Part shown: one piece after another, positions 55,799 through 61,798 of the stretch
Position numbering within the stretch: the first letter of the stretch is position 1
Layout of the letters: every line of letters starts with the position of its first letter
IMG/VR virus record: IMGVR_UViG_3300045049_000079
Coordinates: 25,831-89,830 of that record
Length of the DNA: 64,000 nt
DNA from: a virus
Direction: 5' to 3' (one strand)
Program-made: the position numbers and the translations under genes
The notes under the pieces: model-generated
Database searches by the model: none
What the model saw: only the letters and a program-made list of their open reading frames with translations
Told to the model about the DNA's origin: nothing

Positions 55799-58700
55799 AT
55801 GGCAACAGTAATTGGGGATCGTGACGTACTGCTGTTGGGCAGTTCGCAGCGTGCGCTTAATCCGCTCAACTCAGGAATTCTCCTGACGACAAGCGCTCCA
55901 GCATTTAAAGTTGATACGAGTGGTAATCCGCTTCCTTCCTCGATTACTGTTAAAGCCAGCTTGATCGGTATTACAGGATTTGTCAATTTCAGTGCCACAG
56001 GTGCTACTGTTACCGATCATGGCGATAACACTGCAACACTTGCATACTCGTCACTGACAGGTGCTTCGTGCACTGTGACAGCTAACATCACTGTAAATGG
56101 TCAAGCGTTTACTAGCAGCGTCACTCTTGCTAAAGTTACCGACGGGGCATCCGGCACTTCAGGCACAAGCGGTAATCAATATGCGACAGCTTACTTGTAT
56201 CAGTGGGCACCAAGCACTCCTGCGCTTCCCACTGGAACGTCGGGCTACACTTGGTCCACTGGAGTAAACAGTACATATTCTGCTTCGGATGGTTGGAGTA
56301 CCACTGTACCTGCTAATCCCGGTACGCCTGGATTGAAATTGTATGTAGCGAGCACACAAGTTACGGCCAGCGCTGGCACAACTTCTACAGTGGTTTCTTA
56401 CTCCACTGCATCTGTACAAGCATGGACGCAGAACGGAGCCAATGGTACGAACGGAACTAATGGCACAAATGGTGCAAACGGAGTCCAATCTGTAAATGCA
56501 CGAGTTTATCAATGGGCTGCGACTATTCCTGCCGCCCCTGCTGGTTCACCAACGTACACATGGAGCAACGGCAACATCAGCGTTATTCCTTCTGGATGGT
56601 CTTCCACACCCGGAACTGCGCCATCTCAAGGCATGACATTGTGGGCCGCTCAAGTGTTTGTCACAGATACAGCAACGGCCACTCAGACAACATTTAATTG
56701 GTCTAACAGTGCTGTTGTTGCTGTTGGTTATTCTGGCTCTAATGGCGCTGCTGGCGCTTCTGGAGCTTCTTACGTCACAGCCTATTGCGCGTCGTCCACA
56801 GGAACCACTAGCACTGCTCCTGCACAAACAACTGGCAAGACAAGCCTGCCTGCTACCAATGATGGTGGCATCGCAGGAACGTGGGCTGCAACGGTTCCTA
56901 CTTTGTCTACAGGGCAATACCTCTATCAGTCTGACGGTATTTATGATCCGAGTACGAATAAGGTCACTTGGTCGATTCCTTATTGGTCGTCGCTGAAGGT
57001 TGGCAGTTTGTCGGCTGTGTCGGCTAATACTGGCAGACTTACGGTTAGCGATGTTATTTCGGATGCTGGTGGTAATTGGTCGCTCGACAGCAACGGACAC
57101 ATGATTGCCAAATCAATTGATTTGCAAGACAGTGCAGGAAATACTTTCTTGTCTGCGGGTGTTCCGTTACCAGCCTCGCATTTTGGCGGCACGCTCGGCG
57201 GCGACAACCTGATGAACAACAGCAGCTTCGAGGTACAAGACTCCTCAAATGTACCTCTAGGCTACCGGGTCTATAACAATGGTGGGTCGGCCAGCGTGTC
57301 GTATTTGATTGTACCCGGTCGCACTGGCGGAAAAGCGTTTGCTATTCGTGCGACCGCAACAAGTAGCACAACGTTCGGTCTTACATCAAGCAATCTGTAT
57401 GCCGATCCTGGGGTAACTGGCGGTATTCAAGGCGGCTGGCAACCGAACAAGACCTACATCGTTTCGTTCAAGGCTAAGAAGGTCAATGGCGCCAACATGA
57501 ACACCATGTGGCTCCAGTGGAATACCGCGCCCGCCACAGCGACTTGGGTGACCCGTCCAAACCTCACGACAAGCTGGCAGACCTACACCGCTCGGATCAC
57601 ATGGGGCTCTTCAGTAGAATCTCAAGGGCAGTTGTATCTGGATACAATCAACGGCGTTGGGCCTGTTGTCTCTGGTGACGAATTCTGGATTGACGAATTA
57701 ATTATCCAAGAGGGCGACGTTTATTCCGAGTGGTTCCAAAGCTCCCGCGAAGCCAAAGCGACGGCGGACAGCGCTATTAACACACTCAATACGATCGCAG
57801 ACGACAATACGTTATCTAAGGGTGAGAAGTCTGCTGCAATCGCCGCATGGAACGCTGCGGACGCTGAATGGAATACACTTCTAACGCAAGCTGACTCGCT
57901 CGGCGTAGACAGAAGCGCTTATAACACTGCACACCAGAACCTCTCCAACTACCTGCTGTCGATCAGTCCTTCGTGGTCGGACACAACAACAGACTCGCCG
58001 ATTGTGGGATCGACGTGGCGTAGCAATTGGACTTCGTATTACAATGAGAAGCAGAAGCTTATTAATGCGCTGGCAGCAAAGGCGTCAACTTTGTCTACGT
58101 GGAACGGCGTGAGCGGCGCAGGTAAACCGCAGGATAACGCGACGAACGGCAATGTCATCAACGGCGACCCGAATTTCGTGAATGCCTCGCTTTGGACGGT
58201 TTGGCAGAACACGAGTAATGCGAACATTCAGTTCAACTACGCTGCCAACGCACCGGGGCAAACGGCGCCGACGTGCGTTCTGCCGACCAATCCGGCCGGC
58301 ACGGGCAACGCCGAAGTGTGGCTACTGGAGAACAAGCGCTATCCGATCAGCGCAGCCAAAACGTACCGCCTGGCTGCTTACATTTACAGCAGCAGCGGCA
58401 ACGACCGCATGTTCTATCTGGCCGTCGATTTCTATGACGTCAGCGGAAATCGGCTCGGCACTAGCTGGGGCGGTACGTGGTCGGGTTACCCGGTAAGCGG
58501 CGTCCCAACTTCGAACAGCACGTTCAACCGATACAAGGGTGATTTCGGCGCCAATACGTCGTACGCCATTCCTGCCGGTGCGGTTACGTGCAGCGTGGGC
58601 ATCATCCTGAACTACAATCCGAGTGGATATAACGGTGGCGTGATGGCGGCACAAGGCTTCGTGTTCACCGACATCACGGACGGCGCAACAATTGGTTTAA

Positions 58701-59875
58701 ATCTTGGTGGACAATTCACCTCGTCCAACGCTTCCACATACATTGCTAACGCTGCAATCCAATCAGCAATGATTAACGATCTGCGCACAAGCAATTACGC
58801 AGAAGATGGAAGCGGTAATCCTACTTCTGGTGCGAAGATGGCATCCGGTGGGACAGCTATGAAGGTTGCCTCGGATAACCTGCAAATTGGCTCGCGGGTA
58901 TTTACGGATTATTGGTTCCGTCTGCTGCAAGGCATTGATGGTAGCTATTCTGTTGGCAGGGTTATCTGGCGTGGTAACAATGATGTATCGACGCGCGGCG
59001 GTGCGCCGAACATCAACTGCCTTTCCATGACTTCACAAATGTCGCTGAATTCGAATTCGCGACAGATTGCTATATTCGGCTACACGTTGACGCCTACCAG
59101 CTACAACAGCTATACGGACAATCTCGACGCAATGTCTCAGATTCATGTTCAGCTTTTCGACAATGCGACCGACGCCAGCCCAGCATCTGAAGCTTATGAA
59201 GTATGTAATTCTCGTACCTACGATGGCAATGCGGGCGCGGTTCGTGGCACTGTTATTTGCTGGAAGTTGAGCCCATATGAAACCGTGTACGGGTACGCCG
59301 GATATGTTCGTGCTCGCATATCCAACAGCTACGGGTGGTCGGCGACAAAGGACTTTGGCCCAGCTACAAGCTTTGGCGGCACTCTCCCAAATGCGACTAT
59401 TACAGGCACTGGTGGTTCGTCTGGTGGTGGTTCGGGCGGTACGTCAGGCGGCGGCGGCGGTGCATGCCCTGCCCCATGGGTCAAAGTGAAGCTGGTTAAT
59501 GGCAAAGAAGTCAATGCTAGCGAATTGCATAATGGTGCTCGTGTTATGGCTGTTGATGACAACACGATGGAATCACTTCCTAACGGTGGTGTTCTGCGCG
59601 ATGTTCACACAATTTGGTCTAAACGGTATCGCTTGAAGTTGACAAATGGTGAGGCTACGGAGTGGAGTGCTAATCACCGCTTCGCTGTCGTTGATCGTGG
59701 CTGGGTTAATATTCAAAATCTTCGTCCGGGCGATCATATCATGGGTTTGAAAGAATGTACCGTCGAGAGTGTGCTGTTTGTTGGTGAAGGTGAAGTTGTG
59801 TCCTACCGAGTAGAAGGCGCAGGTACGTATTTTGCTGGAAACATGCTCTGCCATAACCTGAAAACTCCCAGCTAA
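55799..59875 (+). CDS. central tail fibre/receptor-binding protein with C-terminal Hint domain
   Basis: G-x-N repeats, carbohydrate-binding-like modules, Gly linker, then C...SANH...WV...L.PGD...TYFAG..CHN. Confidence 0.8.
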   Translation: MATVIGDRDVLLLGSSQRALNPLNSGILLTTSAPAFKVDTSGNPLPSSITVKASLIGITGFVNFSATGATVTDHGDNTATLAYSSLTGASCTVTANITVNGQAFTSSVTLAKVTDGASGTSGTSGNQYATAYLYQWAPSTPALPTGTSGYTWSTGVNSTYSASDGWSTTVPANPGTPGLKLYVASTQVTASAGTTSTVVSYSTASVQAWTQNGANGTNGTNGTNGANGVQSVNARVYQWAATIPAAPAGSPTYTWSNGNISVIPSGWSSTPGTAPSQGMTLWAAQVFVTDTATATQTTFNWSNSAVVAVGYSGSNGAAGASGASYVTAYCASSTGTTSTAPAQTTGKTSLPATNDGGIAGTWAATVPTLSTGQYLYQSDGIYDPSTNKVTWSIPYWSSLKVGSLSAVSANTGRLTVSDVISDAGGNWSLDSNGHMIAKSIDLQDSAGNTFLSAGVPLPASHFGGTLGGDNLMNNSSFEVQDSSNVPLGYRVYNNGGSASVSYLIVPGRTGGKAFAIRATATSSTTFGLTSSNLYADPGVTGGIQGGWQPNKTYIVSFKAKKVNGANMNTMWLQWNTAPATATWVTRPNLTTSWQTYTARITWGSSVESQGQLYLDTINGVGPVVSGDEFWIDELIIQEGDVYSEWFQSSREAKATADSAINTLNTIADDNTLSKGEKSAAIAAWNAADAEWNTLLTQADSLGVDRSAYNTAHQNLSNYLLSISPSWSDTTTDSPIVGSTWRSNWTSYYNEKQKLINALAAKASTLSTWNGVSGAGKPQDNATNGNVINGDPNFVNASLWTVWQNTSNANIQFNYAANAPGQTAPTCVLPTNPAGTGNAEVWLLENKRYPISAAKTYRLAAYIYSSSGNDRMFYLAVDFYDVSGNRLGTSWGGTWSGYPVSGVPTSNSTFNRYKGDFGANTSYAIPAGAVTCSVGIILNYNPSGYNGGVMAAQGFVFTDITDGATIGLNLGGQFTSSNASTYIANAAIQSAMINDLRTSNYAEDGSGNPTSGAKMASGGTAMKVASDNLQIGSRVFTDYWFRLLQGIDGSYSVGRVIWRGNNDVSTRGGAPNINCLSMTSQMSLNSNSRQIAIFGYTLTPTSYNSYTDNLDAMSQIHVQLFDNATDASPASEAYEVCNSRTYDGNAGAVRGTVICWKLSPYETVYGYAGYVRARISNSYGWSATKDFGPATSFGGTLPNATITGTGGSSGGGSGGTSGGGGGACPAPWVKVKLVNGKEVNASELHNGARVMAVDDNTMESLPNGGVLRDVHTIWSKRYRLKLTNGEATEWSANHRFAVVDRGWVNIQNLRPGDHIMGLKECTVESVLFVGEGEVVSYRVEGAGTYFAGNMLCHNLKTPS

Positions 59876-59889
59876 TTAAAAAGGAAAAT

Positions 59890-60405
59890 ATGAGTAATAT
59901 TGATATCCAGACAGCGCTTGCTAATGAAGCTCGTCGCCAAGAACTTCGCTCTAGCATCGCAGAACTAAAGGGCCGCATGGACGCAACAGCCTCGGCTGTG
60001 CAGCGGCTTAACAGTGTTAATAGCGATAGCCAAATTGCTCTCACGGAGAAGCAGGCTGAACTGGCGGCTCTGGAAGCCGGTGCTGGTCCAGGCATTACAG
60101 CCGATTACGGCCCTAAGTCTACAATCACACAATTGATTGAGAAGGAGCGGTTTGCTGCCAAGTCTGCCACGATAGATTTTGTTAAAGCTAATCCTGCTTG
60201 CACTGAAGCTGATGCCGCCGCTGCTTGGAATCAGGCAGCTTTAGCAAGTCATCCAGAGTTTGCATCTGTTATTCAGGATGGGATGATTATGTCTGCTCTG
60301 TATCGTGGGAACATGGTGGCTGCTGGGCTTATCACAGAAAACACTTGGGAAGCCCATCGTCAATTCATTCTCAATACACCAGTTGACACATTGAATACGC
60401 TGTGA
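59890..60405 (+). CDS. hypothetical protein with N-terminal coiled coil
   Basis: AAGGA RBS; directly after the fibre gene. Confidence 0.75.
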   Translation: MSNIDIQTALANEARRQELRSSIAELKGRMDATASAVQRLNSVNSDSQIALTEKQAELAALEAGAGPGITADYGPKSTITQLIEKERFAAKSATIDFVKANPACTEADAAAAWNQAALASHPEFASVIQDGMIMSALYRGNMVAAGLITENTWEAHRQFILNTPVDTLNTL

Positions 60406-60468: not shown

Positions 60469-61290
60469 ATGTCTAATCTACGAGTAATTTATAATAATGC
60501 GGCAGACAGGGCAACACTATCCTCTTCTGCCACAGCTTCGGGGTTGTCTGTCTCCAATCTTCTTACAGATGTTAAGTCGAAAGTTTGCAGAAGTACAGGC
60601 AAGACACTCACTATCACTGCCACATGGGCTAGTGCTGAACTGATTGATGGAATTGTATTGGCTTTCACCAACGGCACCCCAACAGCAACAATGGAAGTGG
60701 TGCTGTACACCAACTCTGCTGACACCGCTCCTGTGTATGACTCTGGCGCTGTTACGTGCTGCCCTCAACAAGCTGGTGCGTGGGCTACAGGCACAGGAGT
60801 TAACAGCTTTGCGTATGGTGGTGGTGTGTACGCTCGCGTGTGGCTCCCTAGTAAGATTAGCGCACAGAAGGCTGTCATCACGATTACAGACAATGATAAC
60901 ACATCGAGCTACTTTGAAGCAAGCCGATTGATTATTGGCTCTAGTTGGAATCCTTCTGTTGTGGATGTACAAGGCACTACGTTGCAGGTTGTAGATACGA
61001 GTACTCACACACGGACAGATGCAGGAGACTTGTACACGTATGTTGGCACAAAGCACCGTAAGCAGGCTATCAATCTTCCTAGTATTGAGACAGCTTCGCG
61101 TAAGCAGCTTTGGGATATTATGTTTGGAAATGGGCTGTCAAAGCCAATCTTCTTGAGTTTGTATCCCAACAATTCTGACGCTAATACAGAGGCTGCACAT
61201 ATGATCTATGGGAAGCTTGTGACTACGCCGTCGATGCAAACCCCATACTTTTCATATTTCTCTGCCACTGTTGAGATTGAGGAGGTATGA
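60469..61290 (+). CDS. tail protein (distal-tail-like)
   Basis: RLIIG..W.P, D.S...RT..G motifs; promoter TTGACT-17-TATAAT upstream. Confidence 0.6.
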   Translation: MSNLRVIYNNAADRATLSSSATASGLSVSNLLTDVKSKVCRSTGKTLTITATWASAELIDGIVLAFTNGTPTATMEVVLYTNSADTAPVYDSGAVTCCPQQAGAWATGTGVNSFAYGGGVYARVWLPSKISAQKAVITITDNDNTSSYFEASRLIIGSSWNPSVVDVQGTTLQVVDTSTHTRTDAGDLYTYVGTKHRKQAINLPSIETASRKQLWDIMFGNGLSKPIFLSLYPNNSDANTEAAHMIYGKLVTTPSMQTPYFSYFSATVEIEEV

Positions 61291-61291
61291 C

Positions 61292-61798
61292 ATGAAATGG
61301 GAAGATGCCAAGAAGATTATAAAATCCGGCGACATCGTAGCATGTTCTCACCAACCTTGGGCAACAATTTCAGATATCCAATCTCACATAGTTCGTATTG
61401 TAACCCAATCAGAATATAGCCACGTCGCAGTGGCATGGCTTCCTCCTGACGGCGATCCACACGTAATTGAAGCTGTTGTACCTTGTGTGACACTATCTCC
61501 GTTGGAACGGTATCTGGATTACGGATTCTTCTTGATCCAAATTCCAGACAAGCCAATGACTCAAGAAGAGGAATCTTACGGGATGTCTAAGCTTGGGGAA
61601 GAGTACAGTAAGCTTGAGGCCATCGAAGGGCAGTTTGATTTACTAGCAATCGGCGGGTCTGATCGTTGGGAGTGTGCGGAGCTAACAATCTGCATGCGAA
61701 GACTATCAGGGCTTGAGCTTGGAGCCAAAGCAACACCAGCAGCAGTAGTACAGCGCGCCCTTTCTTTGGGCTACTCAATGCAGTTCATCGAAAGGTAG
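61292..61798 (+). CDS. permuted papain-like NlpC/P60 amidase (YaeF/YiiX family)
   Basis: GDI, YSHV, IEA, G..Y, W.C.EL, TP order (His before Cys). Confidence 0.75.
   Translation: MKWEDAKKIIKSGDIVACSHQPWATISDIQSHIVRIVTQSEYSHVAVAWLPPDGDPHVIEAVVPCVTLSPLERYLDYGFFLIQIPDKPMTQEEESYGMSKLGEEYSKLEAIEGQFDLLAIGGSDRWECAELTICMRRLSGLELGAKATPAAVVQRALSLGYSMQFIER

Follow-up and report, generated by a model that had tools for sequence, protein, structure and literature searches.

A C-terminal Hint domain on phage tail-tip fibres as a putative self-excising pro-domain of a portable cassette

Introduction

Type-A bacterial intein-like (BIL) domains, as presented in two reviews that draw on Amitai 2003 and Dassa 2004 (PMC4031507, PMC7765530), are Hint domains with a C-terminal His-Asn and no nucleophile at the +1 position, in which cleavage dominates and splicing is weak (PMC4031507), and they are located in the variable regions of non-conserved proteins that are often surface-exposed or secreted (PMC7765530). 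Here we report a domain with these features at the extreme C-terminus of a predicted tail-tip fibre in the IMG/VR virus record IMGVR_UViG_3300045049_000079, together with the small partner gene that follows it. The window, by which we mean the whole stretch of DNA analysed, is the final 64 kb of this record of 89,830 bases, and all window coordinates are counted from its first letter.

Other Hint systems resemble the one described here in part. For BIL2 of the Tetrahymena BUBL polyubiquitin locus (PDB 6tmm, 6y75), transfer of the N-terminal flank to the epsilon-amine of a lysine in the C-terminal flank was shown experimentally (PMC8616854). In Hedgehog proteins a C-terminal Hint domain, here called Hog, cuts off the N-terminal protein via a thioester and can pass it to another nucleophile, and the PT-HINT domains of polymorphic toxins (PF07591) bring about release by autoproteolysis at the ends of proteins that are long and filamentous.

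Phage fibre tips determine host range, and what is known of their maturation concerns mainly separate chaperones and serine-type self-cleaving domains. Domains of the Peptidase_S74 type are intramolecular chaperones at the C-terminus of tailspikes and fibres that cleave themselves off by means of a Ser-Lys dyad. We propose, with a probability of roughly 60%, that the Hint domain reported here is the self-excising pro-domain of a portable tip cassette, acting once in cis, and that its partner gene encodes a helical accessory or assembly protein.

Results and discussion

The fibre end and its Hint domain

The fibre is encoded by an open reading frame (ORF) of 1358 aa, which is preceded by a 488-aa ORF and, before that, by a 1637-aa tape-measure-like ORF. 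Its role as a tail fibre is assigned from this position and from relatives in which the same end is attached to Phage-tail_3, FNIII-A_GpJ or T7-tail N-terminal parts. At its C-terminus a Gly/Ser tether of 20 residues leads into a Hint domain of 131 aa, which is followed by only the five residues LKTPS and a TAA stop codon. The end of the ORF on the plus strand reads ITGTGGSSGGGSGGTSGGGGGA / CPAPWVKV ... EWSANHRF ... LRPGDHI ... EGAGTYFAGNMLCHN / LKTPS-stop, where the slashes mark the boundaries of the Hint domain. The initial annotation had described this tether, domain and tail, with their motifs and the 171-aa ORF downstream, and all of them lie where it had placed them.

55799-59875, plus strand: tail-tip fibre ORF, 1358 aa (role assigned from position and relatives)
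59405-59464, plus strand: Gly/Ser tether GTGGSSGGGSGGTSGGGGGA, aa 1203-1222 (G1203-A1222), read directly; Ala1222 is the -1 residue
59465-59857, plus strand: Hint domain, 131 aa (C1223-N1353), type-A-BIL-like, without an endonuclease insert (sequence, AlphaFold2, Foldseek)
59465-59467, plus strand: Cys1 (C1223), predicted thioester nucleophile
59666-59677, plus strand: block B, S-A-N-H (S1290-H1293), aligned to T-A-N-H of DnaB mini-inteins
59852-59857, plus strand: terminal His-Asn (H1352, N1353), block G
59858-59875, plus strand: five-residue tail LKTPS (59858-59872, Leu at +1) and TAA (59873-59875)
59861-59863, plus strand: Lys1355 at +2

Both the WVNIQNLRPGD and the GAGTYFAG motif are present in the window Hint, and blocks A, B, F and G can all be placed in it from the sequence alignment and the AlphaFold2 (AF2) model. 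No curated model in Pfam or NCBIfam attains its cut-off with the domain. Pfam Intein_splicing comes closest (E 4e-7, 30.4 bits against a cut-off of 35.8), PF01079 Hint gives E 0.037 and 14 bits against a cut-off of 29.7, and the NCBIfam scan returned only models of intein-bearing helicases and radical-SAM proteins, far under their cut-offs. When 14 close relatives were scanned, seven matched Intein_splicing and one matched PT-HINT at E <= 0.01, the window's own domain scoring 30.1 bits in this comparison against the same 35.8 cut-off.

The structural evidence is considerably stronger. An AF2 model built on an alignment of 41 relatives has a predicted local distance difference test score (pLDDT) of 90.7 and a predicted template modelling score (pTM) of 0.81, with low scores confined to the tether and the tail. 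Foldseek searches with this model matched 65 PDB chains at E <= 0.001, and the 50 shown are inteins, BIL domains and Hedgehog Hint domains. The top match is the DnaB mini-intein 1mi8 (E 6e-11, template modelling (TM) scores 0.74 and 0.81), and gp41-1 was also matched; the Tetrahymena BIL2 (E 3.3e-8), the BIL domain of C. thermocellum (E 2.4e-7) and Hedgehog (about 3e-6) follow. At the level of sequence, phmmer against the PDB found DnaB mini-inteins at E 1e-3 to 1e-2, with ANHRF of block B and the terminal HN aligned, while a profile of the 14 close relatives matched the type-A BIL domain 2lwy best (E 1.4e-6), its top intein being DnaB at E 1.7e-3. The initial annotation had made its reading depend on a Hint fold being found by structure prediction; since model, Foldseek and profile results agree, that fold is confirmed, and in the predicted structure the domain is a genuine and complete Hint fold.

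Conservation across the family

When 1.84 billion representatives were searched exhaustively with HMMER, the family, clustered at 50% identity, came to 310 clusters at E <= 0.001, of which 75 had E <= 1e-10 and 36 had E <= 1e-30. Residues were counted in the 150 listed representatives, 127 of which cover nearly the full domain; in 102 of these the Hint ends no more than 20 residues from the C-terminus of the protein (C-terminal members), and in 25 it is internal. Cys1 is present in every one of the 102 C-terminal and 25 internal members. Among the C-terminal members the block-B His is likewise invariant (102/102) and the block-B Ser/Thr is found in 92, the penultimate His in 100, the terminal Asn in 101 and the +2 Lys in 97, and Gly occupies position -2 in 90 and position -3 in 88. 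The +1 residue, by comparison, is free (L18 A17 T14 V14 I11 Y5 K5 M4 F3 R3 Q3 S2 N2 W1, n=102) and is never Cys. The tail after the Hint has 2-20 residues, most often five (34/102).

The domain also evolves slowly. Identity to a much more G+C-rich relative is 81% in the Hint as against 68% over the last ~400 aa, and the nonsynonymous divergence (dN) from four relatives lies at 0.14-0.31 in the Hint, as against 0.35-0.44 in the distal domain that precedes the tether (see below) and 0.25-0.39 in the partner; the synonymous divergence (dS) is saturated in these comparisons, being above 1.6 or not computable. On these measures the Hint is the best-conserved portion of the fibre, and from the residue counts its catalytic residues are clearly under strong purifying selection. 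The auto-processing that the initial annotation had proposed is the natural reading of this pattern, since Cys1 (102/102), the block-B His (102/102) and the terminal Asn (101/102) are near-invariant and dN is low.

Departures from the common form were also seen. In L036 2082-3914 (Geothrix campi, 611 aa) and L049 1-1881 (627 aa) the penultimate His is replaced by Ser (QSNLK and NSNVK, respectively), and neither locus has the partner gene; these Ser-for-His forms may represent a sub-lineage with altered C-terminal chemistry. Five distant relatives (P0106, P0114, P0118, P0127 and P0144) have an internal Hint followed by a conserved extension that consists of a Gly/Asp-rich stretch and a block of about 60 residues, to which no Pfam family was assigned in a scan of P0106 alone. 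P0079 and P0130 each gave nine separate matches to the Hint query and appear to contain tandem Hint arrays.

Comparison with described Hint systems

In its features the window Hint is type-A-BIL-like: the terminal His-Asn is there, no nucleophile stands at +1, and the host protein is variable, as the reviews describe for this type. Like the C. thermocellum BIL domain (PDB 2lwy) it combines the Hint fold with an N-terminal Cys, a block-B His, the His-Asn end and the lack of a +1 nucleophile, and the protein that bears it is variable and exposed at the surface, not a conserved enzyme. It differs from that system in being placed at the extreme C-terminus with just 2-20 residues beyond it, in having a poly-Gly tether ahead of it and a near-invariant Lys at +2, and in being found on phage tail-tip proteins where it is tied to one distal domain and one partner gene. 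The initial annotation had called the domain non-splicing, which is too strong a label, as type-A BIL domains are reported to splice weakly without a +1 nucleophile (PMC4031507); the other review describes them as unable to ligate (PMC7765530).

BIL2 shares with the window Hint a significant structural similarity and a lysine just past the domain, which is conserved here. The flanks are ubiquitin-like in BIL2, whereas here they are a fibre and a five-residue tail, and identity is only 11-13%; moreover, the isopeptide was demonstrated for BIL2, whereas the present system is known from sequence and predicted structure. Class-1 mini-inteins (Ssp and Npu DnaB, gp41-1) are the best structural matches (E 6e-11, TM 0.74-0.81) and have the same residues in blocks A, B and G. 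In contrast to them, the window Hint has Leu at +1, 86 of the 102 C-terminal relatives have no Cys, Ser or Thr there, and there is neither a C-extein to rejoin nor a conserved host insertion site. With Leu at +1, five residues following and no C-extein, a canonical class-1 intein was excluded, the terminal His-Asn being as in such inteins.

The resemblance to Hedgehog proteins lies in the C-terminal Hint itself. In Hog the Hint is followed by a sterol- or adduct-recognition region and lacks the terminal Asn, whereas the reverse holds here on both counts; since only LKTPS follows the domain, with no adduct-recognition region, an assignment to Hog was excluded. The PT-HINT domains are similar in their use at the end of long filamentous proteins, and two distant members of the family attain the PT-HINT cut-off (P0064 with 43.7 bits and P0095 with 30.8 bits). 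They differ in that no toxin domain lies beyond the Hint here, and toxin release was rejected for the window, where there is no cargo and no PF07591 match at E <= 1. Finally, the Peptidase_S74-type domains offer a parallel in biology, namely the expected loss of the C-terminal domain of a phage fibre through autoproteolysis as the fibre matures. Fold and chemistry are unrelated (a Hint with a Cys thioester here), no Pfam match to Peptidase_S74 was found on the fibre ORF, and a chaperone role for the Hint would be by analogy only.

The distal domain and its carriers

Immediately before the tether lies a domain of about 250 aa that is conserved together with the Hint.

58664-59410, plus strand: distal domain, aa 956-1204 (~250 aa), conserved together with the Hint
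58862-58864, plus strand: Lys1022 in G-T-A-M/L-K-V, conserved in at least 90% of the rows of the distal-domain alignment; candidate acceptor in a speculative stapling reading (see below)

The distal domain was found in 66 of the 150 listed Hint representatives. When it was used alone as the query, in a search that covered word-sharing relatives and proteins of 437-2000 aa, all 45 proteins retrieved ended in (C/S/A)HNxK plus a few residues, and none among them had the distal domain without the Hint. AF2 predicted the domain with an overall pLDDT of 71, rising to 80-96 for model residues ~125-265, so that its C-terminal ~140 residues form a confidently predicted beta-sandwich; Foldseek gave no PDB match to this fold at E <= 0.001, returning generic beta-sandwich entries only.

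The N-terminal parts of the carriers vary, with Phage-tail_3, FNIII-A_GpJ, DUF1983, T7-tail N-terminus and CBM_4_9 all assigned by Pfam, and fibres with the same Hint end range from 200 to 2572 aa with unrelated N-terminal parts. Because of these differences we consider the fibre end to be a shuffled module of J-like central fibres and of side fibres. Since the distal domain always occurred with the Hint (45/45), and since the partner gene follows 22 of 23 such fibres and none of seven others, the distal domain, tether, Hint and partner gene together constitute, by their co-occurrence, a portable cassette. The coupling of distal domain and Hint, and their linkage to the partner as a cassette, are described here as new.

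The partner gene

The gene that follows the fibre starts 14 nt past the end of the fibre ORF and belongs to an orphan family.

59881-59886, plus strand: AAGGAA, ribosome-binding site of the partner gene, read directly
59890-60405, plus strand: partner ORF, 171 aa, orphan family

The protein has an N-terminal ALANEARR motif, a coiled-coil-like stretch, the motif GAGPG(I/V/L)T.(D/S/N/E)(F/Y)G and a helical C-terminal half. At 90% identity its family splits into 104 clusters, not one of which has a Pfam domain, and nine short forms of 104-121 aa correspond to the N-terminal half only. Searches of Pfam, PHROGs, NCBIfam, the PDB and the Atlas assigned no family to the partner, with those of PHROGs, Pfam and the PDB (by profile) giving stray or coiled-coil matches only; in the Atlas there was no usable feature match, and the structural matches all had TM < 0.5. 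Likewise, no sequence or fold match to a known tail-fibre assembly or chaperone family was obtained, and it is the position after the fibre gene alone that fits such a role. The family alignment has no invariant Lys or Cys.

Linkage was assessed by pooling loci from the window, IMG/VR, species genomes and metagenomes and counting those with an identical last 150 aa once, which gave 33 Hint ORFs. Two of these were set aside for having fewer than 400 nt downstream (L046, and L039, where the start of the partner is nevertheless visible), and 31 remained.

Distal domain present, partner present: 22 loci
Distal domain present (weak match), partner absent: 1 locus, L049 (Ser replaces the penultimate His)
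Distal domain absent, partner absent: 7 loci (L032, L033, L035, L036, L047, L048, L050)
Distal domain not assessable, partner present: 1 locus, L045 (cut 55 aa before the stop)

The partner thus follows 22 of 23 Hint ORFs with the distal domain and none of the seven Hint-bearing tail proteins without it. The initial annotation had regarded the neighbour as a dedicated partner of this kind of fibre end, and the 22 of 23 assessable fibres uphold it. Given the contrast with the seven proteins that lack the distal domain, the partner is, by gene linkage, dedicated to the cassette and is not a general companion of Hint-ended tail proteins.

Across 21 loci the pairwise divergence of the partner correlates with that of the Hint at r 0.90 and with that of the distal domain at r 0.78. 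The partial correlations are 0.72 for partner and Hint, which none of 2000 permutations reached, and 0.12 for partner and distal domain, which 237 of 2000 reached. We do not read the former as co-evolution, since the loci share ancestry, the two genes lie side by side, and the distal domain gives a noisier measure and evolves faster.

A proposed mechanism and its alternatives

In the mechanism that we favour, Cys1223, aided by the block-B His1293, would convert the peptide bond between Ala1222 and Cys1223 to a thioester, and Asn1353, aided by His1352, would cyclise so that the bond ahead of Leu1354 is cut. The thioester could then be resolved close by, through the alpha-amine of the freed tail, the epsilon-amine of Lys1355 (the BIL2 route) or water or a thiol; attack by the tail alpha-amine is the route proposed for type-A BIL domains in PMC4031507. 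Processing would yield a free Hint and a mature fibre whose last residues are those of the glycine tether, or of LKTPS if this is re-attached. The Hint would then be functionally akin to the self-cleaving C-terminal chaperone domains of other fibres while relying on thioester chemistry, and it may serve as a cap, a solubility aid or an assembly aid. The partner is probably an assembly factor or an accessory of the tip. Self-excision explains all of the conserved features at once. That Lys1355 might accept the fibre in a self-ligation, as the initial annotation had suggested, gains weight from the conservation of the +2 Lys in 97 of 102 members and from the isopeptide to a flanking Lys reported for BIL2 (PMC8616854).

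A number of points weigh against this proposal. Cleavage is predicted, for every member of the family, from conservation. It is possible that the thioester is resolved by plain hydrolysis or thiolysis, which would not account for the near-invariant Asn and +2 Lys, and the benefit of re-ligating a tail of five residues is not evident. The two reviews disagree on whether type-A BIL domains ligate their flanks (PMC4031507, PMC7765530). The L049 fibre, with its weak match to the distal domain, has no partner, and in its divergence the partner stays closer to the Hint than to the distal domain, which is compatible with a tighter tie to the Hint. The purpose of the pro-domain is the weakest step, and we know of no Hint domain that acts as a folding chaperone.

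The thioester at the end of the tether might instead be handed to a lysine or another amine outside the Hint, be it Lys1022 in the distal domain of a neighbouring chain, which would give a self-stapled trimeric tip, the partner protein, or the host surface. Several observations speak for such covalent coupling. BIL2, which moves its N-terminal flank to lysines (PMC8616854), ranks high among the structural matches (E 3.3e-8). The tether combines length with flexibility, and Gly prevails in it in 88-90 of 102 members; the distal domain, which was always accompanied by the Hint (45/45 retrieved), bears the conserved Lys1022, and the partner diverges in step with the Hint (r 0.90). An outside nucleophile would free the Hint without cyclisation of the Asn, and yet the Asn (101/102) and the Lys (97/102) have been kept; furthermore, the five residues past the Hint leave no room for an adduct-recognition region. 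For the partner in particular, which the initial annotation had named as a possible ligation acceptor, nothing points that way: it lacks an invariant Lys or Cys and is missing beside all seven Hint-bearing tail proteins that have no distal domain. We do not favour ligation to the partner or to the host, and consider coupling as a whole unlikely. We hold a similarly low opinion of the possibility that the Hint stays on the virion, either as a stable knob with a structural or binding role or with its cleavage delayed until host contact or a thiol or redox trigger. Inteins and BIL domains may be conditional, effects of zinc being described in PMC8616854, and the status of the Hint as the most conserved part of the fibre is also consistent with binding. 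A domain that only binds, however, would not require 95-100% conservation of Cys1, of the block-B His, of the terminal His-Asn and of the +2 Lys together, and tips that contact receptors usually vary, whereas the Hint is near constant across differing N-terminal parts.

It is highly improbable, in our judgement, that the domain has no function here, being either the decaying remnant of a selfish mini-intein that lost its C-extein or one half of a split intein paired with the next ORF. The closest structures are indeed DnaB mini-inteins, and deposited phages gave no matches other than terminase inteins and a single record without annotation. A remnant would be expected to decay, however, yet the catalytic residues are invariant across 102 diverged clusters, and the C-terminal position is the rule (102 of 127 members); the selfish remnant was rejected on the conservation of the catalytic residues. 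A split intein or fractured gene was rejected because the Hint is complete, with blocks A, B, F and G, and because the next ORF shows no intein-like motif or block. Read-through into the partner was also rejected, as the partner lies in another frame, with a TAA between and a ribosome-binding site of its own.

If the Hint merely excises itself, as we propose, it would represent a new kind of fibre pro-domain and also a naturally occurring self-cleaving tag for C-termini, very compact and already equipped with a Gly linker. Were the thioester passed on instead, tail assembly or adsorption would include a covalent ligation step that needs no enzyme, the first of its kind, and the coupling reading would provide phage tails with thioester-based, enzyme-free cross-linking or irreversible attachment. 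The 310 clusters at 50% identity suggest an entire class of tip modules, almost absent from deposited phages, that would rely on intein-type thioester chemistry.

Occurrence and previous descriptions

In three tblastn comparisons with 50,697 records of deposited phages, the matches were limited to terminase inteins (9, 9 and 1 records, respectively) and a single tail-type record, and Megablast of the locus against the same phages gave no match. The tail-type record is L051 1147-3351 (GenBank MT835519.1, an unannotated 'Bacteriophage sp.' from human faeces), in which an ORF of 734 aa, hydrophobic at its N-terminus, closes with a Gly run, Cys, Hint and SHNIKQQEQLQ; we take this ORF to be J-like.

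Among 185,579 species genomes there were five loci, of which four belong to Myxococcota and one to Geothrix. The Corallococcus locus (L034) has the full cassette, partner included, and three others encode presumed gpI-like tail-assembly proteins that end in a Hint; Corallococcus carmarthensis CA043D (L034), where the cassette lies in a prophage-like region, thus provides a cultured carrier. In L032 2610-3929, L033 2697-3929, L035 2607-3920 and L048 1588-3420, from Myxococcus and Pyxidicoccus genomes and one soil contig, frames of 411-611 aa (stop to stop) end in GGG-Cys, Hint and SHNxK plus 8-12 residues, and these loci have neither the distal domain nor the 171-aa partner. The Hint frame there lies after an NlpC/P60 or gpK-like ORF and before a J-like ORF, and from this position we presume it to be gpI-like.

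Two of the Myxococcus members bear the NCBI label 'Hint domain-containing protein', and several proteins of uncultured phages in BFVD have the automatic name 'Hint domain containing'. The literature covered contained no report of a Hint or BIL domain placed at the end of a fibre, the original lists of type-A BIL domains, which possibly include prophage proteins, lying outside that coverage.

Neighbouring genes and minor observations

The N-terminal third of the fibre contains a short collagen-like run, NGANGTNGTNGTNGANG, at about 56430-56490 (aa ~212-232). Downstream of the partner the window encodes a protein of 273 aa (60469-61290, phrog_8610). This gene follows the partner in only 8 of the 23 loci with fibre and partner, and 9 of the 15 loci without it have at least 1500 nt downstream. 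Its counterpart in the G+C-rich relative is 453 aa long (L002 6976-8337); the two have conserved ends and differ by an insertion in the middle of the gene, and the gene product looks like another modular tail protein. A 175-aa ORF at 61271-61798 has a weak match to Peptidase_C92, a permuted papain-like amidase family (E 0.023, under the cut-off), and is kept downstream of the 273-aa gene in L003-L010.

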